NCBI GenBank assembly: GCA_049678185.1
Contig: JBAUDS010000369.1
Coordinates: 354 to 64,353 of the forward strand
Origin: Thermoanaerobaculia bacterium
Lineage (GTDB): Bacteria > Acidobacteriota > Thermoanaerobaculia > Multivoradales > JAHEKO01
Direction of reading: 5' to 3'
DNA: 64,000 nucleotides
Part shown: one piece after another, positions 32,521-54,854 of the stretch
Position numbering within the stretch: the first letter of the stretch is position 1
Layout: each line of letters starts with the position of its first letter
Program-made: the position numbers and the translations under genes
Notes under the pieces: generated by a model
The model's database searches: none
The model's input: only the letters and a program-made list of their open reading frames with translations
What the model was told of the DNA's origin: nothing

Positions 32521-34998
32521 GTGGACACGGCTCGATCGATCCGACGAATTGTCCTGGCCAGTCTGGGGATCGGTCTGCTCGCCACCTCCACCATTTCTGC
32601 ACAAGAAGCCCCCGGGCCCGAGACTGTCACCAGGACCGTGACGCTCGCGGTCGAGGTGCCGCGGGCACTCCACTCGACGGATCTCCAAGCGGGCGATCTC
32701 GAGGTCTTCTACGACGGCGTTTCACAACCGGCCGTCGGGCTCCGCCAACCGTCCGCGGACCGGGCGGGTGACTCCCCAGGCGACTGGCAGGTGGTCGTCT
32801 ATTTCGACGCACCTCTCAGCACCCCGGAAGGTCTCAAGATCGCGGCGCGCACCCTGGCACGCCAGGCCGAGTCTCTGATCACGCTGGGCCCGGTCGAGGT
32901 CGTCCTCGCCGACCCCCTCCCCCGTCTTTTTCTGGCCGCGAGCCGGAGCTCGACCGAAGTCGAGGAGGCCTTGAAGGATGTCCCGCTCGACTCGTTTGCC
33001 GCCGGTGAGCTGGCCTGGCTGCGTCAGCGCTTTCTCGCCGCCGTCGACAGTGCCGACTCGGAGACGGTGGCCAACCATGCCCTCGGCCAGGAGGTCGCGC
33101 TGCTCGAGCAGCAGCGTAGCGGTCTGCTCCGTTGGCTCGCCGACCGGCCGAGTCGAGGTCCGCGGGTCGTCTTTCTGGTGCAGAACGGTTTTGATCTCAA
33201 TCCTCGGGAGTTCTATCTGGAGCGGGTCGGTCGCACCTTCTACGAGGACCCGCGCAGCGAGATCGCCCACACCGACCTCGCCCGCACCCTGGCTGCCGAG
33301 GGTTGGATCGCCGTCGTGCTGGCCATGGGTAACACGCCCGAGGAGCTGACCGAGCCCCTGGCCCCGCTCGACGAGCTGAGAGAGGCCACCGCCGGAGTGA
33401 TCGTCCACCGGCCAAAGAAGCTGGCGCCGACCTTGGAAGACCTGGCCCAACGTCACCTGCTGACGGTCGCGTTGAGCGGTGAGGCCGACGGCGAGCCGCG
33501 CAGCCTCGAGGTGCGGCATCGGCAAACGGGCAGGAGGCTGAGCACTTCGGCTTGGACCGCGGTTTCGACGCCAAGGGCCCTCGCCGAGCTGACGGCCGCG
33601 CCGGATGCGGACGCGACCGGGGTGGCTGCGTCTACCTCGTCGGTGGTCAAGCCGGTCATCCGGCTCCTGCGGCCGGAAGCGACGGCCCTGGCCGGGCTCA
33701 CTCGCTTTCGCACCGTCACCGGTCGGCGCCAGATCGAGCGGGTCGCCTTCTACCTCGATGGTAAGGAGGTCGTGATCGACGAGCGAGGTCCGTTCTCGGC
33801 CGTCATCGATCTCGGCCCCTCGCCGCGCCCTTGCACCCTGGAAGCGGTCGCCTTCTCGCCCAGCGGCAGACGGCTCGGGGTGGACGCTATCGACCTCAAC
33901 ACCACGGTCGACCCCCTCGAGGTGGCGATCACCGACATCGTGGCCAGACCCGAGGCGGGGATCCTCGAGATCGAAGCCGATGTGAAGACACCGGCCGGTG
34001 CCGAGTTGGATAGGGTCGAATTCTTCTTCGACGAGAATCTCGAGCTCACCCTGAACTCATCGCCCTACCGCGCCCAGCTCCCGCTGCCCGAGACCGACGA
34101 CAACGACTACGTCAAGGTCGTGGCCCATCTGACCGACGGCTCTTGGGCGGAGACCGCCAAGCTCGTCGCCTCGTCCGCGGCGACCGCAGACGTGCTGGAT
34201 GTCAACCTGGTCGAGCTGTTGGCGGTGGTCACCCCACGCAACCGGGATTCGCTCCCACTCCTGGAGCAAAGCGATTTTTCGATTCGACGCAAGGACAAGC
34301 TGCTGCCGGTTCAGCGATTTGCCCGCTGGGACGATCTGCCCCTGGCTCTGGGCCTGGTGATCGACACCTCCGACAGCATGGAGCCGCTGCTGGCAAAAGC
34401 TCACGCCGCGGCGGAGCGCTTTTTCGAACAGGTCCTACGCCCAGGGGATCGGGCGTTCGTCGTCGACTTCGACACCATGCCCCGGATGACCGGTCGCGCC
34501 ACGGACGACAAAGACGAGTTGCTCCACAGCCTCGAGGGGCTCGACGCCAAGGGCAACACCGCTCTCTACGACGCCATCGTCTACTCGCTACTGCAATTCG
34601 ACAGCTCGCCCGGACGCAAGGCGGTGGTGGTGCTCACCGATGGCAAGGACTACGTCAGCCGTTATCAGCCGAGCGACTGCATCCGCCAGGCTCGGCTGCA
34701 GGGGGTGCCGGTCTACCTCATCGCCCTGGGCGCTCCACCCGATCTGCGGCAAGAACCCTCGCAGATGAGAAATGTAAAGATCGCCACCGAGACCGGCGGC
34801 AAGGTCTTCTACCTCACCGATCTCGACGATCTGGACCGGGTCTATGAGAGGATCGACGAAGAGCTGCGAAGCCAGTTCTTCCTCGCCTTCTCAACCGATC
34901 ATGCCCTGACCCAAAAGGAGCTCCGTGACGTCAAGGTCGAGGTGAGGCAAAAGGGACTCGCGGTGCGGACTCTCCTCGCCAGGAGCCACACTCCATAA
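32521..34998 (+). CDS. Secreted von Willebrand factor A (VWA) domain protein (Acidobacterial VWFA-related family-like), 825 aa.
   Basis: Signal peptide. C-terminal VWA domain with MIDAS motif (LALGLVIDTSDSM ... GNTALYDAI ... VVVLTDGKD). Its C-terminal tail is homologous to the second VWA protein at 48636-50063. GTG start with a GGGAG Shine-Dalgarno. Confidence 0.8.
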   Translation: MDTARSIRRIVLASLGIGLLATSTISAQEAPGPETVTRTVTLAVEVPRALHSTDLQAGDLEVFYDGVSQPAVGLRQPSADRAGDSPGDWQVVVYFDAPLSTPEGLKIAARTLARQAESLITLGPVEVVLADPLPRLFLAASRSSTEVEEALKDVPLDSFAAGELAWLRQRFLAAVDSADSETVANHALGQEVALLEQQRSGLLRWLADRPSRGPRVVFLVQNGFDLNPREFYLERVGRTFYEDPRSEIAHTDLARTLAAEGWIAVVLAMGNTPEELTEPLAPLDELREATAGVIVHRPKKLAPTLEDLAQRHLLTVALSGEADGEPRSLEVRHRQTGRRLSTSAWTAVSTPRALAELTAAPDADATGVAASTSSVVKPVIRLLRPEATALAGLTRFRTVTGRRQIERVAFYLDGKEVVIDERGPFSAVIDLGPSPRPCTLEAVAFSPSGRRLGVDAIDLNTTVDPLEVAITDIVARPEAGILEIEADVKTPAGAELDRVEFFFDENLELTLNSSPYRAQLPLPETDDNDYVKVVAHLTDGSWAETAKLVASSAATADVLDVNLVELLAVVTPRNRDSLPLLEQSDFSIRRKDKLLPVQRFARWDDLPLALGLVIDTSDSMEPLLAKAHAAAERFFEQVLRPGDRAFVVDFDTMPRMTGRATDDKDELLHSLEGLDAKGNTALYDAIVYSLLQFDSSPGRKAVVVLTDGKDYVSRYQPSDCIRQARLQGVPVYLIALGAPPDLRQEPSQMRNVKIATETGGKVFYLTDLDDLDRVYERIDEELRSQFFLAFSTDHALTQKELRDVKVEVRQKGLAVRTLLARSHTP

Positions 34999-35008: not shown

Positions 35009-35896
35009 ATGAAACCGGCTCCCTTCGACTACACGGCGCCAGACTCGCTCGCGGGTGCCCTCGCTCTCCTCGGCGAGCACGGGTACGACGCCAAGCTGCT
35101 GGCCGGTGGTCAGAGTCTGGTGCCGTTGCTCAACTTTCGATTGGCCAAACCGTCGCTGCTGATCGATCTCAACCGGCTCTCCGATCTCGACTATGTCCGG
35201 CCTAGCGACGACGGCGGCTTACGGATTGGTGCGCTGACCCGGCAACGACGTCTCGAGCGGGATCCATTGGTGGCCGAGTGCGCCCCCCTGCTCCATGAGA
35301 CGGTCCCCTTCATCGCCCACCCCCAGATCCGCAACCGCGGCACCGTCGGCGGCAGCCTCGTCCACGCCGACCCCGCCGCCGAGCTGCCGGTGGCCGCGGT
35401 GGCGCTGGAGGCCCGCTTCCGGCTCCAGAGCGCCCGCGGCGAGCGCTGGGTCGCCGCTGAGGACTTCTTTGTCAGCCTCTTCACCACCGACCTGGCTCCC
35501 GAGGAGATGCTGGTGGAGGTGGAGATCCCGCCCTCACCGCCGCGGACCGGTTGGTGCTTTATGGAGATCTCCCGCCGTCTGGGCGACTATGCCCAGGCCG
35601 GGGTGGCAGCTGGAATCACGCTCGACGAGAACGGCGCCTGCGGCCGGGCCAGACTCGTCTACTTGAGCGCCGGAGACGTGCCGGTGGTGGCGTCCGAGGC
35701 AGCGCGGGTACTCGAGACCGACGGCCTCGGCGAGGAGTCGATCCGCGCGGCGGCCGAAGTGGTGGCCGCCAAGGAAGTCGAGCCCACCGATGACATCCAT
35801 GCCACGGCCGCCTTCAAGCGGCACCTTTTCCATGTGCTGACGCGGCGCGCCGTCGCCACCGCGGCCGAGCGTGCCGCCAACGGGGGGCAAGCATGA
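35009..35896 (+). CDS. Molybdenum hydroxylase (xanthine dehydrogenase / CO-dehydrogenase family) FAD-binding subunit (CoxM/CutM-like).
   Basis: FAD-binding-5 domain (LLAGGQSLVPLLNFRLAKPSLLIDL...IRNRGTVGGSLVHADPAAELP) and CO-dehydrogenase flavoprotein C-terminal domain. Confidence 0.85.
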   Translation: MKPAPFDYTAPDSLAGALALLGEHGYDAKLLAGGQSLVPLLNFRLAKPSLLIDLNRLSDLDYVRPSDDGGLRIGALTRQRRLERDPLVAECAPLLHETVPFIAHPQIRNRGTVGGSLVHADPAAELPVAAVALEARFRLQSARGERWVAAEDFFVSLFTTDLAPEEMLVEVEIPPSPPRTGWCFMEISRRLGDYAQAGVAAGITLDENGACGRARLVYLSAGDVPVVASEAARVLETDGLGEESIRAAAEVVAAKEVEPTDDIHATAAFKRHLFHVLTRRAVATAAERAANGGQA

Positions 35897-36375
35897 CCAG
35901 CGTGGAGGTCACGGTCAACGGCAAGCGGTACAGCCGCACCGTCGAGCCACGGCTGCTGTTGAGCGACTTTCTCCGTCACGAGCTGGGTCTGACCGGCACC
36001 CATGTCGGCTGTGAGCATGGCGTCTGCGGTGCCTGTACGGTGCTGCTCGACGGCGAGCCGGTCCGCTCCTGTCTGTTGCTGGCGGTCCAGGTCGATAGTC
36101 ACGAGCTGAAGACGGTCGAGGGTCTCGCCGAGAGCATGGACCAGCTACACCCGCTGCAGGAGGCCTTCCGCGAAGCCCACGGGCTGCAGTGTGGCTTCTG
36201 CACCGCCGGCATCCTCATGACGCTGGAGCCGTTCTTGGAGGACAACCGGGAACCGTCGGAGGAGGAGATCCGTCACGCGCTGTCGGGCAACCTCTGCCGC
36301 TGCACCGGCTACCAGCACATCGTCGACGCGGTGAAGCTGGCGGCCGAGAAGATGGGATCGCCATCGGAGAGATGA
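35893..36375 (+). CDS. Molybdenum hydroxylase (2Fe-2S)-binding small subunit (CoxS-like).
   Basis: Plant-type ferredoxin Cys cluster (GCEHGVCGACTV) plus second cluster (CGFCTAG...CRCTGY). Its ATG overlaps the FAD-subunit stop (ATGA). Confidence 0.9.
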   Translation: MTSVEVTVNGKRYSRTVEPRLLLSDFLRHELGLTGTHVGCEHGVCGACTVLLDGEPVRSCLLLAVQVDSHELKTVEGLAESMDQLHPLQEAFREAHGLQCGFCTAGILMTLEPFLEDNREPSEEEIRHALSGNLCRCTGYQHIVDAVKLAAEKMGSPSER

Positions 36376-37685
36376 TCGACGACCGCGACACCCGACCGAT
36401 CGCGCGCGCGGCGCTGACCGCCGAAGCGCGCGACCTGCTCGGCACCCTCGACCTGCTGGAGAACCACTTCGCGCGCGAGGAGCCGCCGATCCAGGCCTTT
36501 GTTCCTGAAGAGGATCGTTTCGCGCGGCTCCGCCGGGACGCCGAAGAGCTCTTTACCCGGTTCCCGAGCTCCGAGGAGAGGCCACCCCTGTTTGGGGTTG
36601 CCATCGGCATCAAGGACATCTTTCATGTCGAGGGGCTGCCCACCCGCGCCGGATCCGACCTACCCGTGGAAGAGCTCGCGGGTGACGAGGCCGACTGCGT
36701 CACCGCGCTCAAGGGGGCAGGCGCCCTGGTGCTGGGCAAGACGGTGACCACCGAGTTCGCCTACTTCGCCCCCGGCCCGACCCGCAATCCGCGCCATCTC
36801 GAGCACACACCGGGTGGCTCGAGCTCCGGGTCGGCGGCGGCGGTGGCCGCCGGGCTCTGCCCGCTGGCCCTGGGCACTCAGACCATCGGCTCCATCTCGC
36901 GCCCGGCCTCCTACTGCGGCATCGTTGGTTTCAAACCGAGCTACGACCGGATCTCGCGCCAAGGGGTCATACCGTTGTCCCCCTCGCTCGATCACATAGG
37001 GATCCTGGCGGCCGATGTCGAGCTCGCCACCCGCGTGGCCGGGCTGCTCTGCAGCGATTGGCAAGAGAGTCGTCGGTCGTCGGTCGCCGGCCGTCGGCCG
37101 GTGTTGGGGATTCCCGAGGGGCCCTACCTCGAGCACGCCTCGGCCAAGGGTCTCGAGCATTTCAGACGCACCTGCAAGCTCCTGGAGGATGCCGGCTACA
37201 TGGTCCGGTCGGTGATGACCCTGGCCGATTTCCCGGTGGTCCAGGAACGGCATCTCACCATCATGGCCGCCGAGGCGGCGCAGGTGCACGCAGAGTGGTA
37301 CAAGCGATTCTGGGAGCTCTATGACACCCGAACCCGCGATCTCATCGAGCGAGGGACGGGGATCTTGGCCGCAAAATTGGAGGAGGCGCTGGCCGGCCGC
37401 CAGCGACTGCAGTCCGAGCTGGCCGACATCGCCGCCGCCAACGAGATCGATCTCTGGATCTCGCCAGCAGCCACCGGACCGGCACCGGCGGGTCTGGAGT
37501 CGACCGGGGACCCGATCATGAGTCTGCCCTGGAGCCAGGCCGGGTTGCCGACCGTCTGTCTGCCGACCGGGGACACCCTTTCGGGAATGCCGATGGGCCT
37601 CCAGGTGGCGGCCGGTTGGTATCAGGACGAGGAGCTGCTGGCATGGGCCGCTGAGATGGAGGAGGTGCTCGAGCCCGATGACTAG
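36372..37685 (+). CDS. Amidase-signature (AS) family amidase.
   Basis: GGSSSGSAAAVAAG Gly/Ser-rich AS motif. Catalytic Lys context (GIKDIF) and Ser-cisSer-Lys triad region. Its ATG overlaps the 2Fe-2S subunit stop (ATGA). Confidence 0.85.
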   Translation: MIDDRDTRPIARAALTAEARDLLGTLDLLENHFAREEPPIQAFVPEEDRFARLRRDAEELFTRFPSSEERPPLFGVAIGIKDIFHVEGLPTRAGSDLPVEELAGDEADCVTALKGAGALVLGKTVTTEFAYFAPGPTRNPRHLEHTPGGSSSGSAAAVAAGLCPLALGTQTIGSISRPASYCGIVGFKPSYDRISRQGVIPLSPSLDHIGILAADVELATRVAGLLCSDWQESRRSSVAGRRPVLGIPEGPYLEHASAKGLEHFRRTCKLLEDAGYMVRSVMTLADFPVVQERHLTIMAAEAAQVHAEWYKRFWELYDTRTRDLIERGTGILAAKLEEALAGRQRLQSELADIAAANEIDLWISPAATGPAPAGLESTGDPIMSLPWSQAGLPTVCLPTGDTLSGMPMGLQVAAGWYQDEELLAWAAEMEEVLEPDD

Positions 37686-39366
37686 AGTTGTCCGTTGCGA
37701 GATCCGGTCGGGCGCCTATGCCGATTCGATCGTCCTCATGCAGCTGCAGAGCGCGCTGACCCGGCTGCCCGGTGTGATCGACGCCGGGGTGATCATGGGG
37801 ACACCGGTCAACCTCGATCTTCTGGCGTCCAACGACCTGCTGCCGGAGTCCGCCGCCGCGGCCGGTGCCGACGACATGGTGGTGGTCGTCAAGGCCGAGA
37901 GTGACGAGGCGGCAACCGATGCCCTCGCCCAGATCGACACCCTGCTGGCACGCCGGAGCACCGCCGGCGATCAGGAGCACCGACCCCGCAGTCTGGCCGC
38001 GGCGATCAAGGCCCGGCCCGATTCCAACTGGGTGCTGATCTCGGTGCCGGGCCGTTGGGCCGCCGGTGTGGCACGCGAAGCCGTCGACCTGGGTCGCCAT
38101 GTCTTTCTCTACAGCGACAACGTCCCGCTCGAGGATGAGATCCAGCTCAAGCAGGAGGCCGCGGCCAAGGGTCTCCTCTTCCTCGGCCCCGACTGTGGCA
38201 CCACCATCGTCAACGGCGTCGGTCTGGGTTTTGCCAACCGGGTGCGCCGCGGTGCCATCGGTCTGGTAGGAGCTTCCGGCACCGGTCTCCAGGCTGTCAC
38301 CAGCCGCATCCACGAGCTGGGCGGCGGCATCTCTCATGCCCTCGGCACCGGCGGCCGGGATCTGACCGCCGAGGTGGGCGGGATCACGGCTCACGAGACC
38401 CTGGATCTCCTCGCCCGGGATCCGGACACCCGCGTCATTGTTCTGGTCTCCAAGCCCCCCGCGCCGAGGGTGGCCGCCGGTCTGCTGTCCGCGGCGCGGG
38501 CCACCGGCAAGCCGGTTGTGGTTCACTTCTTCGACTTTGTTCCGCCGGCGCGCAGCCTGGACAATCTCCATTTCACCACCAGTCTGAGTCGCGCCGCCGA
38601 GTTGGCCGTCGAGCTACTCGAGAGTGGCACCGAGCCAGCCTCCAAGGCCGAGATCGCCGACAGAGAACACCACCCCGGTCGTCTCCGCGGACTCTTCGCC
38701 GGGGGCTCCCTGGCGGTGGAGGCGCAAGAAGGACTGCGGCCGTTCCTCACCCCCCTGCACTCCAACGTGCCGGTGTCGGGGGTGGAACGCCTCACCGACC
38801 CGACCCGGAGCCAGGGACACACCATCCTCGATCTGGGGTCCGACGAGCTCACCGTCGGTCGGCTCCACCCGATGATGGACCAGCAGCTGCGGATCGACCG
38901 CTTGCACCAGGAAGCCGCCGACCCCGATGTGGGGCTGCTGCTGCTCGACGTGGTCCTCGGCTACGGCGCCCACCCCGACCCGGCGGCGGAGCTGGTGCCG
39001 GCGATCGAAGAGATCCGTCGCCGGCGAGAGGTCGAAATCGTGGCGGTGGTCATCGGCACCGATGAGGACGCGCAGGAGATCTCCTCGCAGATCGAGAGGC
39101 TGACCGCGGCCGGTGCCCGGGTCTTCCGCACCATCACCGAGGCCACTACCTACATCAGCCGGGTCCTGGCGGCCAGGAGACCCACCGGCGGCACACCGGT
39201 GGCGCTCGAGGTTCTGTCCTCCCCGATGGTGGCAATCAACGTCGGTCTCGAGACCTTCTACGACAGTCTCACCGGACAAGGGGTGCAGGCGATACAGCTC
39301 GAGTGGCGCCCGCCGGCAGGCGGCGATGCCCAGCTGATCTCGATCCTGGAAAGGATGAAAAAGTGA
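37678..39366 (+). CDS. fdrA: FdrA family protein (succinyl-CoA-synthetase-alpha-like CoA-binding / ligase-CoA domains).
   Basis: 562 aa. CoA-binding Rossmann segment (VLISVPGRWAAGVAREAVDLGRHVFLYSDNV), then GPDCGTTIVNGVGLGFAN and a second ligase-CoA-like half, as in E. coli FdrA. Overlaps the amidase stop by 8 nt. Confidence 0.75.
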   Translation: MTRVVRCEIRSGAYADSIVLMQLQSALTRLPGVIDAGVIMGTPVNLDLLASNDLLPESAAAAGADDMVVVVKAESDEAATDALAQIDTLLARRSTAGDQEHRPRSLAAAIKARPDSNWVLISVPGRWAAGVAREAVDLGRHVFLYSDNVPLEDEIQLKQEAAAKGLLFLGPDCGTTIVNGVGLGFANRVRRGAIGLVGASGTGLQAVTSRIHELGGGISHALGTGGRDLTAEVGGITAHETLDLLARDPDTRVIVLVSKPPAPRVAAGLLSAARATGKPVVVHFFDFVPPARSLDNLHFTTSLSRAAELAVELLESGTEPASKAEIADREHHPGRLRGLFAGGSLAVEAQEGLRPFLTPLHSNVPVSGVERLTDPTRSQGHTILDLGSDELTVGRLHPMMDQQLRIDRLHQEAADPDVGLLLLDVVLGYGAHPDPAAELVPAIEEIRRRREVEIVAVVIGTDEDAQEISSQIERLTAAGARVFRTITEATTYISRVLAARRPTGGTPVALEVLSSPMVAINVGLETFYDSLTGQGVQAIQLEWRPPAGGDAQLISILERMKK

Positions 39367-40604
39367 GCATCGATCAGGCCAATCAGAAAGCCGTCGAGCG
39401 GATGACGTCGGCCCGGCCGATGCTGACCGGGGTCGATACCGCCAGGGAGGTCATCCCCGGCCTCGGCGAGCGGATGCTTCTCCACGCCGGACCGCCGATC
39501 ACCTGGGACCGGATGTCCGGGCCACTCAAAGGGGCGGTCATCGGCGCCATCCTCTACGAGGGCTGGGCCGAGGACGAGACCAGGGCCGCCTCCATGGCCG
39601 AGGAGGGCGAGGTGGCCTTCGAGCCCTGCCACCACCATCAAGCGGTGGGCCCGATGGCTGGGGTCATCTCCCCGTCGATGGCGGTCTACGTGCTGGAGAA
39701 CATCACCCACGGCAACCGGGCCTTCTCCAACCTCAACGAGGGTTACGGCAAGGTGCTTCGCTATGGTGCCTACAGCTCCGAGGTCCTCGACAAGCTCCGC
39801 TGGATGAACGAGCAGATGGCGCCCGTTCTCGCCGCAGCTCTGGCGGAAACTGAAGGACTCGACATCCGCGCGCTCCTGGCCGAGGCGCTCCACATGGGAG
39901 ACGAGGGGCACAATCGCAACAAGGCCGGCTCGCTCCTCTTCCTGAAGCTCCTGGCACCACTGGTCGCCAGGGTGGCCAAGAATAAGGCCACCGAGGAGCG
40001 CGTCCTCCAGTTCATCGGCGACAACGCACTCTCGGTTCTCAACCCGGTGATGGCCGCATGCAAGGCCATGGCCGACGCCGCGCATGGGATCGAGGCCTCG
40101 ACCCTGGTCACCACCATGGCCCGTAACGGCACCGACTTCGGCATCCGGGTGAGCGGTCTTGGCGACGACTGGTTCACCGCCCCCGCCCCCACCCCCGACG
40201 GGCTCTACTTCAGCGGTTTCTCGGCCGCTGACGCCAACCCGGACATAGGCGACTCGACCATCACCGAGACCGCCGGCATTGGCGCCTTTGCCATGGCGGC
40301 CGCGCCGGCCATCGTCACCTTTGTCAGCGGCACCCCCAGGGATGCCATCACCGCCACCCTGGAGATGTACGAGATCACCATCGCCGAGCACCCGCAATTC
40401 ACCATCCCGACGTTGGACTTTCGCGGCACACCCACGGGGATCGACATCCGCACCGTGGTCGAGCTGGGTATCACACCCCGGGTCAACACCGGTATCGCTC
40501 ACCGCGAGGCCGGGGTGGGTCAGGTGGGGGCCGGTCTGGTGCGACCGCCAAAAGAGGTCTTCGAGCAGGCGCTGGTCGCCTATGCGGAGCGCTATCAGCT
40601 GTAG
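39363..40604 (+). CDS. DUF1116 (YlbE-like) protein.
   Basis: About 413 aa. Architecture and the conserved HHHQAVGPMAG motif match the YlbE/DUF1116 family that partners FdrA. A GTG start overlaps the fdrA stop (GTGA). Confidence 0.75.
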   Translation: MSIDQANQKAVERMTSARPMLTGVDTAREVIPGLGERMLLHAGPPITWDRMSGPLKGAVIGAILYEGWAEDETRAASMAEEGEVAFEPCHHHQAVGPMAGVISPSMAVYVLENITHGNRAFSNLNEGYGKVLRYGAYSSEVLDKLRWMNEQMAPVLAAALAETEGLDIRALLAEALHMGDEGHNRNKAGSLLFLKLLAPLVARVAKNKATEERVLQFIGDNALSVLNPVMAACKAMADAAHGIEASTLVTTMARNGTDFGIRVSGLGDDWFTAPAPTPDGLYFSGFSAADANPDIGDSTITETAGIGAFAMAAAPAIVTFVSGTPRDAITATLEMYEITIAEHPQFTIPTLDFRGTPTGIDIRTVVELGITPRVNTGIAHREAGVGQVGAGLVRPPKEVFEQALVAYAERYQL

Positions 40605-40612
40605 GAGCCGAT

Positions 40613-42967
40613 GTGACCACCCGATTCTTTGGCCAGCGCATCACCCGTAACGAGGATCCCCGCCTGCTGACCGGTCAGGCGCTCTTTGTCGACGACGTGG
40701 CACTGCCCGACATGGGACACATCGCCTATGTCCGCAGCCCCTACGCCCACGCCCGGATCGGGGCGATCGACACCACGAAGGCACGGGAGATGCCGGGGGT
40801 AATCGCCATCTTCACCGCTGAGGAACTGGGGGACTACTGGCAGCCGGGACCGTTGCTGGTGTCGCCACCCCCGATCGAGCGCTGTGTCTTCCACCAGCGC
40901 ACCCAGTTCCCGCTGGCCAAGGACAAGGTGCGGCATCTCGGTGAGGCGGTGGCCGCGGTGGTGGCCACCAGCCGCTACGCCGCCGAGGACGCGGCCGAGG
41001 AGGTGGTGGTCGACTTCGAGCCGCTGCCCGGGGTGGTCGACCTCGAGCAGGCCCTGGCCGCCGACGCCCCGGTCCTCCACGACGATCTCGAGCACAATCT
41101 CGCAGCCCATGTCATCCAGGAGAAAGGGAGCTACGACCAGGCCAAAGCCGGGGCCGAGCTGGTGCTGCGCCGGCGTCTCCTCTACGAACACGGGACCGCC
41201 GCCGCCATGGAGAACCGGGGAATCGTCGCCGACTGGGATAGGCGCGCCCACCGGCTGACGGTGTGGGACACGACCCAGGCCCCGATCCCCATCCGCAACG
41301 GGCTGGCCGCCATGCTTGGGCTCTCCGAGAGCCAGGTGCGGGTCGTCGCCCCCTTTATCGGTGGCGGCTTTGGGCCAAAGATCATGATGTTCTACCCCGA
41401 GGAGATGCTGGTCCCCTGGATCTCGCTCCAGCTTGGGCGACCGGTCAAGTGGATCGAGGACCGCGAGGAGAACTTCACCGCCACCACCCAGGAGCGAGGT
41501 CAGATCCACGACTCCGAGATGGCGCTCTCGGGCGACGGCAAGATCCTCGGCATCCACGATGTCTATCTCCACGACACCGGGGCCTACGACCCCTACGGGC
41601 TGACCGTCCCCATCAACAGCCAGTGCACGCTGCTCGGGCCCTACGATGTGCCCAACTACTACAGCGAGTTCAAGGCGGTCTTCACCTCCCTGCCGATCGT
41701 CACTCCCTATCGCGGGGCGGGCCGTCAGCATGGCGTCTTCGTGGTCGAGCGCCTGCTCGACCTGGCCGCCCGCGAGTTGGGGATCGACCGCGCCGAGATC
41801 CGTCGGCGAAACTTCCTACCCCCCGACGCTTTCCCCCACAACCACGAGATCATCTACCAGGACTTCGCCCCGCTGGTCTACGACAGCGGCAACTACGAGC
41901 CGGTGCTAGACAAGGCACTCGAGATGGTCGGCTACGACAAGTTCGTCAAAGAGACCCAACCCCGGCTACGGGCCGAGGGCAAACACGTCGGTATCGGTGT
42001 GGTGGCCTATGTCGAGGGGACCGGGATCGGGCCCTACGAGGGGGCGCGGGTCCAGGTCCAGGCCAGCGGCAAGGTGAGCGTGGCAACCGGTATCGGCACC
42101 CAGGGCCAGGGGCACTTCACCTCGTTTGCCCAGATCGTCGCCGACCAGGTGGGGGTGGATGTCCGCGATGTCGAAGTGGTCACCGGCGACACCGACCAGT
42201 TCCACTGGGGGGCCGGCACCTTTGCCAGCCGTGGGGCGGTGGTGGCCGGCAACGCCATCCACGCGGCGGCCAAGGACGTGCGGCAGAGGATTCTCGAAGT
42301 GGCGAGCGACCAGCTCGAAGTAGCTGAGGAGGACTTGGAGATCGGCGAGGGGCAGGTGCGGGTCAAGGGTGTGCCGTCGAGTGCGATTCGACTGGGAGAG
42401 CTAGCGCTCAAGGCCAACCCGATGCGGGGCGCGGTCAAACCGGGGACCGAGCCCGGGCTCGAGGCCACCAACTACTTCGGACCCGAGCGGGGCGCCACCG
42501 CCAGCGGGGTCCACGCCATGATCCTGGAGATCGATCCCGAGACCATGCAGATAAAGATCGAGAAGTACGTGGTCGTCCACGACTGCGGCAAGGTCATCAA
42601 CCCACTCATCCTCGACGGCCAGGTCCACGGCGGGGTGGCCCAGGGTCTGGGCAACGCCTTCTACGAGCAGCTCCACTTCGACGACGAGGGCCAGCTCTTG
42701 AACGCCTCCTTTATGGACTATTTGCTGCCCACGGCGCTCGATGTGCCGCGGATCGAGACCGGCCACTGCGAGACCGACTCGCCCTTGAACGAGCTCGGGA
42801 TCAAGGGGGCCGGCGAGGCGGGGGCCATCCCCACCGCCCCGCTCTTTGTACAGGCGGTGGAAGACGCCCTCGCCATCGAGGGCTTCGAGATCCTGGAGAT
42901 CCCCTTGAGCCCCAGCCGGCTCTGGGAGCTCGTCCGTGCGCAGGCCGGGGGCAAGCAGAGCGGCTAG
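40613..42967 (+). CDS. Molybdenum hydroxylase molybdopterin-binding large subunit (form-II CoxL / xanthine dehydrogenase family), 784 aa.
   Basis: Aldehyde-oxidase/xanthine-dehydrogenase a/b hammerhead and MoCo-binding domains. The active-site loop reads PYRGAGR (AYRGAGR-type, not the AYRCSFR of true form-I CO dehydrogenase). GTG start with an AGGAG Shine-Dalgarno. Confidence 0.9.
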   Translation: MTTRFFGQRITRNEDPRLLTGQALFVDDVALPDMGHIAYVRSPYAHARIGAIDTTKAREMPGVIAIFTAEELGDYWQPGPLLVSPPPIERCVFHQRTQFPLAKDKVRHLGEAVAAVVATSRYAAEDAAEEVVVDFEPLPGVVDLEQALAADAPVLHDDLEHNLAAHVIQEKGSYDQAKAGAELVLRRRLLYEHGTAAAMENRGIVADWDRRAHRLTVWDTTQAPIPIRNGLAAMLGLSESQVRVVAPFIGGGFGPKIMMFYPEEMLVPWISLQLGRPVKWIEDREENFTATTQERGQIHDSEMALSGDGKILGIHDVYLHDTGAYDPYGLTVPINSQCTLLGPYDVPNYYSEFKAVFTSLPIVTPYRGAGRQHGVFVVERLLDLAARELGIDRAEIRRRNFLPPDAFPHNHEIIYQDFAPLVYDSGNYEPVLDKALEMVGYDKFVKETQPRLRAEGKHVGIGVVAYVEGTGIGPYEGARVQVQASGKVSVATGIGTQGQGHFTSFAQIVADQVGVDVRDVEVVTGDTDQFHWGAGTFASRGAVVAGNAIHAAAKDVRQRILEVASDQLEVAEEDLEIGEGQVRVKGVPSSAIRLGELALKANPMRGAVKPGTEPGLEATNYFGPERGATASGVHAMILEIDPETMQIKIEKYVVVHDCGKVINPLILDGQVHGGVAQGLGNAFYEQLHFDDEGQLLNASFMDYLLPTALDVPRIETGHCETDSPLNELGIKGAGEAGAIPTAPLFVQAVEDALAIEGFEILEIPLSPSRLWELVRAQAGGKQSG

Positions 42968-43332
42968 TCGCCGCCTTCGCTGCTCTTCATCTCCACCAAG
43001 ATCAGATCGATCGGTCCGTCCCCCACGTTCGCGGGCAGGTGGTCCCCGGCCGGGGTCCAGATCGCCTCTTTGCCCTTGTTCTCCACCTCCTGGGTCGAGC
43101 CATCGGCCATCGTGAACTGGACCATCTGGTCGGTCAAGAAGACGGCCACACTGTCTGGGTGGTAGTGCATCACCGACTTCTCACCCACGCCATAGGTGAT
43201 CCGCAATACCCGCACTTCGTCATTCTCGAACACCACCTTGTAGTGATCGGGGTCGACCTTGGTCGGGTCTTCCCCCGCCGACAAGGGCGCTACCGCCAGC
43301 AGAAGACACAGCATCATCAGACATCTACGCAT
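42964..43332 (-). CDS. Secreted cupin-domain protein (122 aa).
   Basis: Signal peptide (MRRCLMMLCLLLAVAPLSA) plus small cupin barrel (HYKVVFENDEVRVLRITYGVGEKSVMHYHPDSVAVFLTD). GGAGG Shine-Dalgarno 7 nt before the ATG at 43332. The upstream extension in the ORF track was rejected. Confidence 0.65.
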   Translation of the reverse strand: MRRCLMMLCLLLAVAPLSAGEDPTKVDPDHYKVVFENDEVRVLRITYGVGEKSVMHYHPDSVAVFLTDQMVQFTMADGSTQEVENKGKEAIWTPAGDHLPANVGDGPIDLILVEMKSSEGGD

Positions 43333-43447
43333 AGCAAACCTCCATTGCGACTCGAGCCGCGCTGCCGCGAGCTCATTCTCTGTTCGTGCGAAACTGCCGC
43401 GCATCCTACCACCAAGAAAGGGCGCTTGGGATAGGATTCGGGCCATC

Positions 43448-44803
43448 TTGTCCGCCACCGAGATCGTGACCGAGGCGCCCGCCACCCGGCCGGCCGAGGC
43501 GGCTCCCCGTGTCGTCTACGACATCGACGACCGGCCACCGCTCAGGGAGGCCATCCCCCTCGGTTTCCAACACCTGGTGGCGATGCTGCTGGGGAACATC
43601 ACCCCGCCGCTCCTCATAACCGGGGCGCTGGGGCTGGCCACCGGCGACATAGCCTTCATGCTGCAAGTGGTCTTGGTGATGGCGGGACTCGCCACCCTGG
43701 TCCAGGCCTACCCCATCGGCCCGGTGGGTGGCCGCATCCCGGTCATCATGGGGACCTCGATCGCCTTTGTCGGCGGCGCCATTGCCATCGGTCGCCAGCA
43801 CGGTCTGGCGGTGGTCTTTGGTGCCTGTCTCGCCGCCTCCGTAGTGGAGATCGTCCTGGGCTTCTCCATCGTCCGGCTGAGACGGCTCTTCCCCCCGCTG
43901 GTCAACGGCATCGTGGTCATGCTCATCGGTCTGACGCTGATCCCGGTGGGGATGGACTATGCCGCTGGTGGGGTCAACGCGGAGGACTACGGCTCGCTCA
44001 CCAACCTGGGGATCGCCGCGGTGGTCTTTCTCATCACCCTGCTGCTCAACCAGTTCGGCCGGGGCTTTGTCAGCTACGCCAGCATGCTGATCGGGGTGAC
44101 CGTCGGCTATGCCGCGGCCTTCAGCCTGGGAAAGGTAGACCTTACCCACGTCGCCGACGCCGCCTGGTTCGCTCTCCCCCGCCCACTCGCCTACGGTCTC
44201 GAGTTCCAGTGGACGGCAATCCTGGTGATGGGTTTTATCTATGTGATCTCCACCATGGAGACCATCGGCGACATCACCGGCACCATTGCCGCCGTCGGCC
44301 GCGAACCCACCGACAGCGAGCTACGAGGAGGCCTCATCGCCGACGGGGTCATGAGCGGCTTCGCGGCGCTCTTCAGCGCCTTCCCCAACACTTCGTACTC
44401 TCAGAATGTCGGACTGGTCAATTTCACCGGTGTCGTCAGCCGGCATGTCACCGCCATCGGCGGCATCATCCTCGTGGCCCTGGGAGTGGTCCCCAAGGTC
44501 GGTGCCCTCTTCGCCACCATCCCCCCCGCGGTCATCGGCGGTGGGGGCTTGATCATGTTCGCCATGATCTTTGCCTCCGGTCTCTCCATCATCCACCGCT
44601 CGGTCCCCCTCACCCGCCGCAACCTCGTCATCCTCGCCGTCGCCACCGGCCTGGGGCTGGGAGTCGAGCTCCGCCCAGACGCTTTGCAGTACCTTCCCGA
44701 GGGACTGCGCACCTTCTTCGGCTCGGGGTTGATTGCGGGCGGGCTGACGGCACTGGTGCTGAATGTCATCTTCCCCGACAAGGAACGAATGGAGACCGGT
44801 TAG
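43448..44803 (+). CDS. NCS2 family nucleobase:cation symporter (xanthine/uracil permease family).
   Basis: The N-terminal DDRPPL...GFQHLVAMLLGN, about 12-14 TM segments, and NCS2 signature regions are all typical. There is no in-frame ATG before the conserved N-terminus. The start was therefore assigned to TTG 43448, or GTG 43466 as an alternative. The start is uncertain. Confidence 0.75.
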   Translation: MSATEIVTEAPATRPAEAAPRVVYDIDDRPPLREAIPLGFQHLVAMLLGNITPPLLITGALGLATGDIAFMLQVVLVMAGLATLVQAYPIGPVGGRIPVIMGTSIAFVGGAIAIGRQHGLAVVFGACLAASVVEIVLGFSIVRLRRLFPPLVNGIVVMLIGLTLIPVGMDYAAGGVNAEDYGSLTNLGIAAVVFLITLLLNQFGRGFVSYASMLIGVTVGYAAAFSLGKVDLTHVADAAWFALPRPLAYGLEFQWTAILVMGFIYVISTMETIGDITGTIAAVGREPTDSELRGGLIADGVMSGFAALFSAFPNTSYSQNVGLVNFTGVVSRHVTAIGGIILVALGVVPKVGALFATIPPAVIGGGGLIMFAMIFASGLSIIHRSVPLTRRNLVILAVATGLGLGVELRPDALQYLPEGLRTFFGSGLIAGGLTALVLNVIFPDKERMETG

Positions 44804-44811
44804 AGGTAGAG

Positions 44812-45051
44812 GTGGAGGCCGAAACATCGAACAGCTTTTCGAGTGTTGCCCCAATCCTTGTGATTCTGGGATACGCGGCGGCTTTTCATCTTCTGTACTC
44901 GGCAAGGGAACGGTACGGCTGGACGAGGAGGACAGTAGGCTGGTTGGGGAGGGTCACCAGGCATGGAGAGAGCATCGTCCTAATTTGGGCGCTCATTGCC
45001 GACATGTTGGCAGTGGTGTTCATCATTCTCTGGCTGACGGGGGCCCGTTGA
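44812..45051 (+). CDS. Possible small 2-TM membrane protein (79 aa) in a lower-GC gap.
   Basis: GTG start preceded by GAGGT. Two hydrophobic helices (APILVILGYAAAFHLLY; SIVLIWALIADMLAVVFIILWL). GC3 is lower than the genome norm, so this may be non-coding. Confidence 0.2.
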   Translation: MEAETSNSFSSVAPILVILGYAAAFHLLYSARERYGWTRRTVGWLGRVTRHGESIVLIWALIADMLAVVFIILWLTGAR

Positions 45052-45102
45052 GCCGGTGAACGATCGGATCATGAGACCGATTAGGTGTAGGAGGCACGTG
45101 GC

Positions 45103-45759
45103 ATGAGATCGATAAGCAGGGTGTTGCCGGTGGTGCTGCTGGTGGCCACGGTCGTGGTGCTGGTGGTCTCGGGGATCAATCCTTATGACCGGGTGACCTG
45201 GCTGTTGGAGGTGTTGCCGGTGCTGATCGGGGTCCCGTTGCTGGTGGTGACCTATCAGCGGTTTCCTTTGACTAATCTGCTTTATGGGTTGTTGTTTGTG
45301 CATGCTTTGATTCTGATCGTCGGGGGGCACTACACCTATGCCCGGGTGCCGGTGGGGTTCTGGTTTCAGGAGCTCTTTGATATGTCGCGCAATCACTACG
45401 ACCGGTTGGGGCATCTGGCGCAGGGGTTTGTGCCGGCGATTCTGGCGCGGGAGCTTCTGCTGCGGACCTCTCCACTCCGCGCGGGGAGGTGGCTCTTCTT
45501 CCTGGTGGTTTGCGTATGCCTGGCCTTCTCGGCGTTCTACGAGCTGATCGAGTGGTGGACGGCGCTGATCGGTGGCGGCTCGGCGGATGATTTTCTAGGC
45601 AGCCAGGGGGACGTCTGGGATGCGCAGTGGGACATGTTTCTGGCGCTGATCGGGGCGATAACCTCTCAGTTGCTGCTGTCCGCGTGGCATGACCGGGGGC
45701 TGGCGCGGCTGGGGCTACCTGGGTTTTCGGCCGGCACGGAGGCCGGCCGCTTCGACTGA
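45103..45759 (+). CDS. DUF2238 (YjdF-like) inner-membrane protein.
   Basis: 218 aa with multiple TM helices and a conserved DUF2238-like core (LIVGGHYTYARVPVGFWFQELFDMSRNHYDRLGHLAQGFVPAILAREL). AGGAGG Shine-Dalgarno. Confidence 0.7.
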   Translation: MRSISRVLPVVLLVATVVVLVVSGINPYDRVTWLLEVLPVLIGVPLLVVTYQRFPLTNLLYGLLFVHALILIVGGHYTYARVPVGFWFQELFDMSRNHYDRLGHLAQGFVPAILARELLLRTSPLRAGRWLFFLVVCVCLAFSAFYELIEWWTALIGGGSADDFLGSQGDVWDAQWDMFLALIGAITSQLLLSAWHDRGLARLGLPGFSAGTEAGRFD

Positions 45760-45822
45760 TCAAAATCTCGGCGAAGGATTTTTGCCTCGACATGACTCAT
45801 ACTTACGGGTCAGGGTGAGTGT

Positions 45823-46431
45823 ATGGACGGCGAGGCTAGCGACAAGACACTGGTAAAGCGGTTGCTTGCCGGTGACGAAGAGGCCTTTGAAGAGTTCTTC
45901 CACGGCTATTTTCCTCGCCTCTATCGCTTTGCCCTGGCCCGGGTCGACAACTGTCCCGATGCGGCCGAGGAGATCACCCAGGTAACCCTCACCAAGGTGG
46001 TTTCCAAGCTCGGGACCTACCGTGGGGAGGCCAGATTGTTTACCTGGCTTTGCACCTTCTGCCGGCACGAGATCAGCGCCTATTGGCGGCGGGAGAACCG
46101 TCAGCCGCACCAGGTGGATCTGATCGAGGAGATCCCGGAGATCCGGGCCACCCTGGAGACCCTGCTGGTGTCGAGCGGTGGCGGGCCGGAGGAGAGGTTG
46201 CACCGCAAGGAGATTGCCCGTCTGGTACAGGTCACCCTCGATCATCTGCCGCCCCGGTATGGCGACGCGCTGGAGTGGAAGTACATCCATGGACTGACGG
46301 TCAAGGAGATTGCGGAGCTGCTGCAGGTGGGCCCAAAGGCCGCCGAATCGCTGCTGACGCGGGCTCGCCAGGCATTTCGCGAGGGCTTCTCCGCCCTCGG
46401 CGAGCCACATTTAGCGCTAATTCGGAGCTGA
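45823..46431 (+). CDS. ECF-subfamily RNA polymerase sigma-70 factor.
   Basis: Region 2 (FEEFFHGYFPRLYRFALARV...AEEITQVTLTKV) and region 4 HTH (ALEWKYIHGLTVKEIAELLQVGPKAAESLLTRAR). Confidence 0.85.
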   Translation: MDGEASDKTLVKRLLAGDEEAFEEFFHGYFPRLYRFALARVDNCPDAAEEITQVTLTKVVSKLGTYRGEARLFTWLCTFCRHEISAYWRRENRQPHQVDLIEEIPEIRATLETLLVSSGGGPEERLHRKEIARLVQVTLDHLPPRYGDALEWKYIHGLTVKEIAELLQVGPKAAESLLTRARQAFREGFSALGEPHLALIRS

Positions 46432-46452
46432 TTGGACAGAGGTATTCGAGCC

Positions 46453-47505
46453 ATGAGCAACATCGACAACCAACAGCCGCTGGACCAGGATCGACTGGAC
46501 GCCGAGCAGGAACAGATCGCCCGGCTGCTCCGGTTTGCCGGCCCGCGTCTTGCCGTTCCCGACGAGAGGGCCATCCGTGTCAAGGCTGCCGTGCACGTCG
46601 AATGGAGGGAGTCGATCCGGGCCCGGCAAAGGAGACGGGCCTATCTGTGGGCAGGTACCGGTCTGGCCGCGGCTGCGGTGTTGGCGCTGGCTGTCGGTCT
46701 GACGCTCCGCCCCGCTCCCGACACGCCTCTTCTGGTCCCAACCCAGCTGGTCGCTACCCTGGAGGCCGCCACCGGTTCCGTGCGTCATCTCCAGTCGGCG
46801 GACGATGCCGGGGATCCCGGTGCGCGTTTGGCGCCGGGCGACACGGTGTTCTCCGGCACGGCGGTCAGGACCGAGCCCGGCACCCGAGCGGCCCTACGCC
46901 TCGCCGGCGGCCCGTCGCTGCGTTTGGGCTACGGCACTCTGGTGCGGTTCGTGTCGGAGTCGGATCTCATTCTGGAGGCGGGCCGGATTTACCTCGATTC
47001 GGGCGCACTCGGGGAGGGCGAGTCGTCCATCTCGGTCCGCACCCCTTTTGGGCTGGTCGAGGACATCGGTACCCAGTTCGAGGTCGATATCAGGGAGCAG
47101 GGGATAAAAGTGCGGGTCCGTGAAGGTCTGGTAACCCTGGACCACGAGGATCGGGTCTTCGAGGCGCCGGCCGGTGTCGAGCTGACTATCAACGACGACG
47201 GCGAGCTGACCCGTGGTTCGGTGCCGATCTACGGCCCGCAGTGGGACTGGATCCTGGAGATCGCACCTCCCTTCGAGCTGGAGGGTAGCCGGCTGGAGAC
47301 TTTTCTCGGCTGGGTGGCAAGAGAGACCGGGTGGGAGATGCACTACGCCGACAGCGAGTTGCAGAAGGCGACCGCCGGCACCATTCTGCACGGCTCGATC
47401 ACCGGTCTGAGACCCGATCAGGCCCTCGAAGCGGTGCTGCCGACCTGCGGGCTGGTCTTTCGCGAAGAGGGAGGAACGGTTACCATCGTCGCTGGCCTAC
47501 TCTGA
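46453..47505 (+). CDS. FecR-family anti-sigma factor / transmembrane sensor.
   Basis: Cytoplasmic N-terminus, one TM (AYLWAGTGLAAAAVLALAVGL), and a periplasmic FecR domain (RLAPGDTVFSGTAVRTEPGTRAALRLAGGPSLRL...TPFGLVEDIGTQFEV). It immediately follows the ECF sigma. Confidence 0.75.
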   Translation: MSNIDNQQPLDQDRLDAEQEQIARLLRFAGPRLAVPDERAIRVKAAVHVEWRESIRARQRRRAYLWAGTGLAAAAVLALAVGLTLRPAPDTPLLVPTQLVATLEAATGSVRHLQSADDAGDPGARLAPGDTVFSGTAVRTEPGTRAALRLAGGPSLRLGYGTLVRFVSESDLILEAGRIYLDSGALGEGESSISVRTPFGLVEDIGTQFEVDIREQGIKVRVREGLVTLDHEDRVFEAPAGVELTINDDGELTRGSVPIYGPQWDWILEIAPPFELEGSRLETFLGWVARETGWEMHYADSELQKATAGTILHGSITGLRPDQALEAVLPTCGLVFREEGGTVTIVAGLL

Positions 47506-53070: not shown

Positions 53071-53114
53071 GAGCCCGTAACGCAACTGCGCGGGTTACTC
53101 GGACGGGCTCCTAG
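53067..53114. terminator. Bidirectional terminator-like palindrome between convergent operons (CTAGGAGCCCGT ... ACGGGCTCCTAG).
   Basis: A 12-bp perfect inverted repeat with a 24-nt structured loop. The TAG stop codons of both convergent genes (TPR at 53068-70, anti-sigma at 53111-13) sit inside the CTAG ends of the arms. No T-tract follows. Confidence 0.45.
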
Positions 53115-54818: not shown

Positions 54819-54854
54819 CCGTTGTCTCCTTGCTTCGGGCTTCAGGACGGGGGC

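Follow-up and report, generated by a model that had tools for sequence, protein, structure and literature searches.

An amidase and AllF-AllG genes interleaved with those of a form-II CoxL-like molybdenum hydroxylase: a conserved cluster with a putative role in nucleobase catabolism

In this study, we examined a six-gene operon in a 64-kb stretch of DNA from a Thermoanaerobaculia metagenome-assembled genome (MAG), hereafter the window, and relate it to homologous clusters of uncultured and cultured bacteria. All six genes run in one direction (35009-42967, plus strand) and encode the flavin adenine dinucleotide (FAD)-binding and 2Fe-2S (FeS) subunits of a molybdenum (Mo) hydroxylase, an amidase of the amidase-signature (AS) family, homologues of AllF and AllG, and the large Mo subunit. 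The hydroxylase genes are thus split by those for the amidase, AllF and AllG. This arrangement, already described in an earlier note on this DNA, was seen both in the open reading frames (ORFs) of the window and in an independent gene call on the public contig containing it (L001; GCA_049678325.1, a Thermoanaerobaculia MAG), which returned the same six genes, and it recurs across phyla. The six genes very probably form one functional unit that couples Mo-dependent oxidation to AllFG/amidase processing of a ureide. As a specific scheme, comparison of the sequences suggests catabolism of a dioxo-pyrimidine-type nucleobase, most likely uracil or thymine, for which we consider the chances evenly balanced. 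The genes are as follows:

35009..35896, plus strand: FAD-binding medium subunit, CoxM-like, 295 aa (PF00941, E = 1.4e-47; PF03450, E = 1e-14)
35893..36375, plus strand: 2Fe-2S small subunit, CoxS-like, 160 aa (PF01799, E = 8.9e-33; PF00111, E = 5.9e-10)
36372..37685, plus strand: AS-family amidase, 437 aa (PF01425, E = 1.1e-70)
37678..39366, plus strand: AllF/FdrA homologue, 562 aa (NF004760, PF00549, PF02629)
39363..40604, plus strand: AllG/YlbE (DUF1116) homologue, 413 aa (PF06545, E = 2.8e-97)
40613..42967, plus strand: molybdopterin large subunit, form-II CoxL-like, 784 aa (PF01315, PF02738, PF20256)

Pfam backs all six family assignments (E values from 1e-14 to 1e-97), and together with NCBIfam it bears out every family named in the earlier note, including FdrA and DUF1116, which were checked for misassignment. 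Read base by base, the genes are tightly coupled. The FAD/FeS and FeS/amidase junctions each consist of ATGA, a 4-nt overlap, while the amidase and AllF genes overlap by 8 nt (ATGACTAG) and those for AllF and AllG by 4 nt (GTGA). Overlaps of 4-8 nt, formerly described for the whole series, therefore hold at four junctions but not between AllG and the Mo gene, where an 8-nt spacer with GGAG separates the TAG stop (40602-40604) from the GTG start (40613). Such start/stop overlaps, along with the interleaving, would give co-ordinated synthesis of all components. A promoter and terminator scan of 31.5-45.8 kb gave counts no better than shuffled sequence and is, with a genome both high-GC and non-proteobacterial, uninformative on where transcripts begin and end.

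A protein search with AllG returned thousands of relatives, the top matches being 72-95% identical and stemming from MAGs labelled Thermoanaerobaculia, Acidobacteriota, Anaerolineae, Gemmatimonadota and 'Deltaproteobacteria'. To relate gene orders, we took the best 80 of at least 557 AllG-matching stretches (one genome per species), all of them from MAGs, and labelled their six-frame ORFs with a panel of the window proteins and accessory proteins from related loci; loci were counted only where enough flank was present. AllG is 72-92% identical across these 80 species-level loci, which belong to three phyla. The interleaving is no local chance insertion, as the amidase, AllF and AllG genes lie between the FeS and Mo genes on one strand in 30 of the 37 Chloroflexota and Acidobacteriota loci (26/31 and 4/6, respectively); none of the five Gemmatimonadota loci shows this order. 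In related loci, too, the corresponding junctions often overlap by 4 nt, a qualitative observation only, given the heuristic choice of starts. Median identity to the window proteins was 73% for Mo, 75% for AllG, 74% for FeS, 58% for AllF, 57% for FAD and 55% for the amidase, and the six proteins thus form a single set of orthologues.

Where the Mo genes are contiguous, as in Gemmatimonadota and actinomycetes, AllF-AllG still adjoin them. Some Gemmatimonadota loci have AllF-AllG beside a divergent amidase-cyclase-CoA-transferase block, followed in one of them (L014) by a contiguous Mo operon. The typical Chloroflexota order begins with CoxG, XdhC or a divergent thiolase/CoA-transferase pair and continues with FAD, FeS, amidase, AllF, AllG, cyclase and Mo. 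Downstream of it are NmrA-like, AllH and NCS2 genes in many loci and a CodA-like amidohydrolase gene in a few. A cyclase-family (PF04199) gene directly follows AllG in 49 of 50 loci from Chloroflexota, 3 of 9 from Acidobacteriota and 0 of 9 from Gemmatimonadota; the corresponding counts for AllH in the locus are 15/28, 0/6 and 0/4. UraA-type permeases (best NCBIfam model 'uracil permease', NAT motif E-N...T-R) occur in 15 Chloroflexota loci, the amidohydrolase of this phylum is cytosine-deaminase-like, and its CoA-transferase belongs to family III, dicarboxylate type. No barbiturase (PF09663-type, AtzD/Bar fold) was found in the window or the 80 MAG loci.

Individual Acidobacteriota loci depart from these patterns. 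In L082 (11245-12948) and L030, AllG is followed by a gene whose product, of about 568 aa, has two PF04199 domains in tandem; the Chloroflexota proteins have a single domain and about 260 aa. L082 also has peptidase-like genes between the tandem cyclase gene and the Mo gene, and a gene for a NodU/CmcH-type carbamoyltransferase upstream (2-1810). For L035 (contig_17686), which otherwise resembles the window, we found the FAD, FeS, amidase, AllG and Mo genes and no AllF ORF, which could reflect a frameshift, an assembly problem or a real loss.

All three hydroxylase subunits of the window have CoxMSL-type (xanthine-dehydrogenase-family) domains, and the translated small subunit contains all eight cluster Cys (CEHGVCGAC...C, CGFC, CRC). 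The PDB chains closest to the large subunit are CoxL (8uem, 537 bits), quinoline 2-oxidoreductase (Qor, 491 bits) and 6-hydroxypseudooxynicotine dehydrogenase (Kdh, 455 bits); xanthine dehydrogenase (XDH) chains reach at most 158 bits and nicotinate dehydrogenase 143. Residue-level alignments place the loop TPYRGAGR at the site of (A/S)YRCS(F/L)R in CO dehydrogenase (CODH). The copper-binding Cys is missing from this loop, which argues that the large subunit is not a CODH. The same loop is kept in every readable large-subunit orthologue, save one with SPYRGAGR, and the catalytic Glu is retained (GAGEAG), aligned with that of CODH and Qor. The best NCBIfam model, NF040766 'CODH group 5', scores 934 against a cutoff of 950. 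The form-I CODH model TIGR02416 is missed (573 vs 991), and no equivalog cutoff for XdhA, XdhB or PucD is reached (best XDH model NF043082, 431 vs 780). Taken together, these comparisons indicate a form-II CoxL-like large subunit that is neither a CODH nor a canonical XDH.

Genes for Mo-cofactor maturation (MocA and a split XdhC) are found 2-3 kb beyond the 3′ end of the window, still on its contig. The region just past this end (about 0-3.5 kb; L091 12946-17030) encodes a 4′-phosphopantetheinyl transferase, the MocA-like cytidylyltransferase and the split XdhC, and a gene for an AMP-binding enzyme spans the window end, its 3′ part being window 62514-63977 (minus strand). In the related locus L007, no more than about 4 kb separates the block of AMP-ligase, MocA and XdhC from the operon. 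Here the distance is roughly 17 kb, and the intervening stretch (ECF sigma factor, FecR, VWA, TPR and kinase genes) looks like an insertion.

The AllF homologue scores 498.7 bits on the FdrA model NF004760 (cutoff 433), matches PF00549 and PF02629, and is 38% identical over its full length to E. coli AllF; its best PDB match is 3dmy (FdrA). AllG is 53% identical to E. coli AllG, also at full length, with an uncharacterised protein (3clq) as best PDB match, and PF06545 now carries the name 'Oxamate carbamoyltransferase subunit AllG'. E. coli AllFGH is the oxamic transcarbamylase, catalysing oxalurate + Pi <-> oxamate + carbamoyl phosphate (Kim & Kim 2024, PMC11326118), which confirms the link of FdrA and YlbE to oxamate carbamoyltransferase given in the earlier note. 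The phosphohistidine loop GHAGA of the succinyl-CoA synthetase alpha subunit is not conserved in AllF of the window, of the Anaerolineae locus L009 or of E. coli, arguing against the older label 'acyl-CoA synthetase'. Of the genes that define the E. coli system, the window has those for AllF and AllG and lacks AllH and the linked AllK and allantoin genes. A Pfam survey of the remaining window found no allantoin, urease, XdhC, CoxG or Mo-cofactor genes.

The best solved relative of the amidase is malonamidase E2 (MAE2), with 173 bits over residues 67-433. Its Lys/cis-Ser/Ser triad is intact (GIKD, GGSSSGS, TIGSISRP) and aligns with K62, S131 and S155 of MAE2. The amidase falls below the cutoffs of all named NCBIfam amidases (AtzE, allophanate hydrolase, GatA, PRK08310), scoring 145-188 bits against 391-511. 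We predict from these matches that it hydrolyses a small carboxy-amide, malonamate or oxamate. Arg158 of MAE2 was considered as a marker for carboxylate substrates and dropped, since AS enzymes generally share the Arg of the motif GGS(I/V)RxP.

Our search of cultured organisms used a plasmid collection that includes some mis-filed chromosomes. It identified clusters in the actinomycetes Embleya sp. NBC_00888 (L099 1-31400) and Nonomuraea gerenzanensis (L095), both with a PucR-family regulator, one or two UraA-type permeases (YAENIGVMAATR), a contiguous FAD-FeS-Mo hydroxylase with the TPYRGAGR loop, and a divergent AllH-AllF-AllG block beside it. Downstream of its Mo gene, Embleya alone also has CoxG and a CN-hydrolase. 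The Embleya cluster is flanked by CoxD/CoxE/XdhC-like maturation genes, and beyond it are genes for an AtzD/Bar-family ring-opening amidohydrolase, a carbamate kinase and proteins homologous to the CoA-transferase and the NmrA-like protein of Chloroflexota. Residues 195/321/325/345/346 tell barbiturase (N195 H321 K325 V345 S/A346) from cyanuric acid hydrolase (Peat et al. 2013, PMC3758960). At these positions the Embleya and Nonomuraea enzymes have N H K V A, the barbiturase signature, and those of Aminobacter pSR8 and enterobacterial plasmids R T R G G, the signature of cyanuric acid hydrolase.

Of the plasmid clusters, Leclercia adecarboxylata pZ96-1_4 (L100 661-10740) encodes a ring-opening amidohydrolase, an NCS2 permease, AllH, AllF, AllG and carbamate kinase. 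Aminobacter pSR8 encodes AllF, AllG, a ring-opening amidohydrolase, carbamate kinase, an AtzC-like amidohydrolase, an ABC transporter (BMP/ABC) and AllH. Plasmid and actinomycete clusters together show AllF-AllG(-AllH) repeatedly placed downstream of cyclic-ureide ring opening. When barbiturate is opened, the resulting N-acylurea is ureidomalonate, and with cyanurate it is carboxybiuret or biuret; both are analogues of oxalurate.

Some further observations concern these plasmids. The pZ96-1_4 cluster also has a gene for a hypothetical protein first and a LysR gene last, and its NCS2 permease has a Q-N motif. Its genes recur on many conjugative plasmids of Citrobacter, Klebsiella and Enterobacter, and the cluster looks like a mobile module for utilisation of a cyanurate- or barbiturate-type ring, of which we found no description in the literature searched. 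The AllG sequences from cultured organisms most similar to that of the window (65-74% identical) are truncated fragments on plasmids of Arthrobacter, Paenarthrobacter and Pseudomonas sp. EGD-AKN5. One of these, in Arthrobacter sp. D5-1 pAD51 (L097 8983-11694), lies next to a carbamate kinase gene and the s-triazine gene atzC, which suggests remnants of an AllFG-containing ring-catabolism cluster. AllG matches on Rhodococcus plasmids (37% identity) were set aside as distant paralogues.

Hydroxylation of uracil and thymine by a multi-subunit Mo/FAD/FeS enzyme is known from older enzymology; to our knowledge, genes for uracil/thymine dehydrogenase have never been assigned, and we found none in the literature searched. 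In the scheme that we propose, a dioxo-pyrimidine-type base would be imported, as the observed linkage to permeases suggests. The Mo hydroxylase (FAD, two 2Fe-2S clusters and a cytosine-dinucleotide-type Mo cofactor) would convert it to a trioxo ring, for example uracil to barbiturate. A hydrolase would then open this ring, giving an N-acylurea (ureidomalonate); most MAGs could draw on a cyclase-family enzyme for this and Embleya on Bar. The homology of AllF-AllG to E. coli AllFGH suggests that the pair could use phosphate to cleave this acylurea to carbamoyl phosphate and malonamate, from which the MAE2-like amidase would form malonate and ammonia; in some lineages, a CoA-transferase may then activate the diacid. 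The conversion of uracil via barbiturate to ureidomalonate is that of the classical oxidative pyrimidine route (PMC3758960).

An uncharacterised pathway for a nucleobase or ureide, as the earlier note had it, is supported by the UraA-type NCS2 permeases, cytosine-deaminase-like amidohydrolase, ring-opening hydrolases, carbamate kinase and PucR regulators found in clusters elsewhere. The evidence favours pyrimidines over purines. Taken with all its parts, an as yet undescribed route of oxidative pyrimidine breakdown in which the carbamoyl group is retained as carbamoyl phosphate is a tentative proposal, which we would put well short of an even chance. Under this proposal, the present form-II CoxL-like clade would be the uracil/thymine dehydrogenase, and AllF-AllG would be a general acylurea phosphorylase, with ureidomalonate as its substrate here, oxalurate in E. 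coli and biuret-type products beside cyanurate hydrolases. The AllF-AllG pair of the window lineage would need neither AllH nor a separate ring-opening hydrolase, and it might be complexed with the hydroxylase, making ring opening phosphorolytic.

Several points weigh against a pyrimidine pathway of this kind. Every substrate in the scheme has been assigned by comparison, and no ring-opening hydrolase is encoded in the 64-kb window. The window also has no AllH/DUF2877 (tblastn with E. coli and Anaerolineae AllH queries, E > 0.5; Pfam survey), which upholds within 64 kb the previously noted absence of a YlbF/DUF2877 partner, and no carbamate kinase (chance-level tblastn matches; Pfam survey). 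E. coli allFG without allH formed only about 7% of wild-type oxamate (PMC11326118). Carbamate kinase is likewise missing from all 80 MAG loci (none in Chloroflexota, Acidobacteriota or Gemmatimonadota), and the lineage of the window (the window itself, L007/L016, L011 and L035) has neither a cyclase gene, whether lost or never present, nor AllH or carbamate kinase nearby. In actinomycetes, the hydroxylase is only 48% identical to the window enzyme, and the genes with a barbiturase signature stand apart, in Embleya by about 6 kb of unrelated genes and in Nonomuraea alone at a distance of 42 kb. The hydroxylase subunits also score well on NCBIfam models of archaeal glyceraldehyde dehydrogenase, which leaves room for an aldehyde substrate. 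Finally, the permease encoded downstream of the operon has the NAT motif SQNVGLVNFTG, Q-N...T-G as in XanQ (AQNNGVIQMTG), which would suit xanthine or urate better than uracil, a Q-N motif being of the purine type and E-N of the uracil type. Permease type was discarded as a decisive substrate marker, as Q-N also occurs beside clusters with a cyanurate-hydrolase signature and E-N in the Chloroflexota and actinomycete clusters.

The alternative that survives best, although we consider it unlikely, places the operon at the end of purine breakdown. Here the hydroxylase would oxidise xanthine or a purine-derived ring, AllF-AllG would be a true oxamate carbamoyltransferase, and the amidase would convert oxamate to oxalate and ammonia. 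The similarity of AllG to its E. coli counterpart, with oxalurate as known substrate, is in line with this, as are the 'purine catabolism' name of the PucR family in the actinomycete clusters and the XanQ-like motif of the window permease, which exceeds the cutoff of the pbuX xanthine-permease model (TIGR03173, 441.7 vs 414). The family III CoA-transferase of related loci scores on CoA:oxalate CoA-transferase and Frc models as well, and oxamate and malonamate are similar small carboxy-amides. However, neither the window nor the related loci encode uricase, allantoinase, or allantoate or ureidoglycolate enzymes, and the large subunit is far from XDH (158 bits vs 537 for CoxL-type). In addition, UraA-type permeases accompany the cluster in most related loci and in the actinomycetes, some of these loci also having a cytosine-deaminase-like or barbiturase-signature enzyme.

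We judge it rather improbable that the same logic serves another ring, such as a hydantoin/imidazolone, an s-triazine-related compound or another N-heterocycle, or that the Mo enzyme oxidises an aldehyde intermediate. The proteobacterial plasmids, on which AllFG(H) lies beside enzymes with a cyanuric-acid-hydrolase signature, indicate that this family is not tied to one ring. An aldehyde would fit the high scores on glyceraldehyde-dehydrogenase models, and the literature treats form-II CoxL enzymes as having no settled function (PMC13240472). Against this, a hydroxylase is not required for s-triazine rings, the Embleya enzyme bears a barbiturase signature that singles out barbiturate, and NCS2 permeases are the only transporters recurrently linked in MAG and actinomycete clusters, the Aminobacter plasmid having a BMP/ABC system instead.

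A third explanation, that AllF-AllG resembles an ADP-forming acyl-CoA synthetase whose CoA thioester is hydroxylated or reduced by the Mo enzyme, as in 2-furoyl-CoA dehydrogenase and 4-hydroxybenzoyl-CoA reductase, is very doubtful. It would account for the CoA_binding and Ligase_CoA domains of AllF, its NCBIfam name 'acyl-CoA synthetase FdrA', and the CoA-transferase and thiolase genes adjoining many Chloroflexota clusters. But purified E. coli AllFGH is a carbamoyltransferase, the AllF-AllG pair is linked to carbamate kinase in cultured organisms, and models of 4-hydroxybenzoyl-CoA reductase score far below CoxL-type ones; nor is the GHAGA loop preserved in any of the three AllF proteins compared. 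Chance juxtaposition of an inserted amidase-AllF-AllG block, or a form-II CODH with unrelated passengers, is in our assessment effectively excluded, despite the CODH group model scoring best on the large subunit and the contiguity of the three Mo genes in Gemmatimonadota and actinomycetes, by the interleaved order in two phyla, the co-variation of all six proteins, the proximity of the blocks even where not interleaved, and the active-site loop without the copper-ligand Cys.

Immediately around the operon, three further genes were identified:

32521..34998, plus strand: secreted VWA/Big_7 protein (Pfam VWA, Big_7)
42964..43332, minus strand: small putative cupin-family protein, predicted secreted, 122 aa (Cupin_2, E = 0.035; homologues annotated as cupin)
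43448..44803, plus strand: NCS2/NAT symporter, XanQ/PbuX type (PF00860, E = 1.3e-91; TIGR03173 pbuX)

The cupin-like protein, whose N-terminus reads as a signal peptide, scores 14.3 bits on Cupin_2 against a cutoff of 27.2; its homologues form a widespread family of about 120 aa, many with a precomputed PF07883 match or a cupin name. The earlier note had listed it as flanking the operon. It is probably no part of the module, as its gene is convergent to the operon on the opposite strand and related loci do not share it: we found it only in near-identical contigs, and the cupin at the equivalent place in L007 is unrelated. Its stop (42964-42966) and the TAG of the Mo gene (42965-42967) share a CTAG palindrome, leaving no intergenic room for a terminator, and we place the gene outside the operon. 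The permease gene, starting at 43448 (TTG, gene caller) or 43466 (GTG), is a separate transcription unit, and an orthologue 72% identical lies downstream of the cluster in the Thermoanaerobaculia locus L082. Upstream, the VWA/Big_7 gene ends 10 nt before the FAD gene, with no promoter-like site between them (in a scan itself no better than chance). The same adjacency was found only in L007/L016 and L035. This gene may therefore be co-transcribed with the operon, to which it has no evident functional link.

The remaining genes of the window are unrelated to the operon according to the Pfam survey. They include, counting the VWA/Big_7 gene above, three secreted VWA/Big_7 or VIT-VWA paralogues (32521-34998, 48636-50063 and, on the minus strand, 54855-57341) and two pairs of extracytoplasmic-function (ECF) sigma factor and anti-sigma genes, of FecR and zf-HC2 type (45823-47505 and 53111-54854). 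Negative AT skew at 10001-12000 (-0.27) and 44001-46000 (-0.21) coincides with membrane-protein genes, an SSF symporter (10424-12103) and the NCS2 permease with DUF2238 (43448-45759), and probably reflects T-rich codons for hydrophobic residues. On the minus strand 27 kb upstream of the operon (4932-8388), a gene for a thiamine pyrophosphate-dependent enzyme (N, M and C domains), of a fold that includes oxalyl-CoA decarboxylase and glyoxylate carboligase, adjoins one for an aldehyde dehydrogenase.

We met no account of this cluster in the literature searched, and one may exist elsewhere. What matched were work on E. coli AllFGH, papers on CODH and a study of nitrifier MAGs, in which allFGHK adjoins genes for triuret and biuret (PMC12625717). 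None of the protein families is itself new; the novelty lies in the conserved gene order, in which the S and L genes of a form-II CoxL-type hydroxylase enclose those for an AS amidase and AllF-AllG, and in the pathway logic this implies. Form-II CoxL-like hydroxylases are routinely counted in metagenomes as putative CODHs, and one large clade of them now has a testable role. AllFGH was identified only in 2024, with a single substrate in E. coli, and the present loci appear to widen its scope to a recurrent module for breakdown of cyclic ureides and nucleobases in at least five phyla (Acidobacteriota, Chloroflexota, Gemmatimonadota, Actinomycetota and Pseudomonadota). If our reading is right, the abundant uncultured Anaerolineales, Thermoanaerobaculia and Gemmatimonadota of soil and sediment could gain nitrogen, and possibly ATP, from pyrimidines. 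Since homologous clusters are present in cultured Embleya and Nonomuraea and on enterobacterial plasmids, this can be tested without cultivating the MAG organisms.

To put these findings into context, it is helpful to compare the operon with systems already known. AllF and AllG of the window are full-length homologues of the E. coli proteins, adjacent, co-oriented and in the same order as in allFGHK, and we assume for them the reaction type of AllFGH, in which phosphate splits an N-acylurea into carbamoyl phosphate and an amide. In contrast, E. coli has AllH, carbamate kinase and allantoin genes, all of which the window lacks, and the window pair is embedded between Mo-hydroxylase genes with an amidase ahead of it. 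E. coli has no such amidase, and its allantoin fermentation accumulates oxamate. The predicted substrate also differs, being ureidomalonate here and oxalurate in E. coli.

With other form-II CoxL and Qor-type hydroxylases, the window enzyme shares the three-subunit CoxMSL architecture and a loop of the AYRGAGR type (here TPYRGAGR), and its closest solved structures are CoxL, Qor and Kdh. It differs in that the M-S-L gene order is broken by three or four unrelated genes, and coxDEF genes are absent. For a group whose function is regarded as unresolved (PMC13240472), the genomic context would give this clade a nucleobase-type role. The match of the amidase to MAE2 (Bradyrhizobium japonicum, PDB 1ock) is nearly full-length, and both are compact AS enzymes of about 415-435 aa with a Ser-cisSer-Lys triad; at only 173 bits, the amidase represents a distinct subfamily.

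The Embleya, Nonomuraea and plasmid clusters have in common with the window AllF, AllG, usually a nucleobase permease, a ring-processing enzyme and a step handling an amide or carbamoyl group. Unlike the window, they retain AllH and, in most cases, carbamate kinase. Their Mo genes form one contiguous run or are missing, their ring openers are of the AtzD/Bar fold, and a CN-hydrolase or no amidase takes the place of the AS amidase. The closest metabolic parallel to our proposal is the classical oxidative pyrimidine pathway of Rhodococcus, Nocardia and Mycobacterium (PMC3758960). That pathway opens the ring with a barbiturase of the AtzD/Bar fold and releases urea via ureidomalonase, whereas most of the related loci would use a cyclase-family PF04199 hydrolase, and AllFG and the amidase would yield carbamoyl phosphate and then ammonia. 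Our route would nevertheless share its first intermediates and its end product, malonate.

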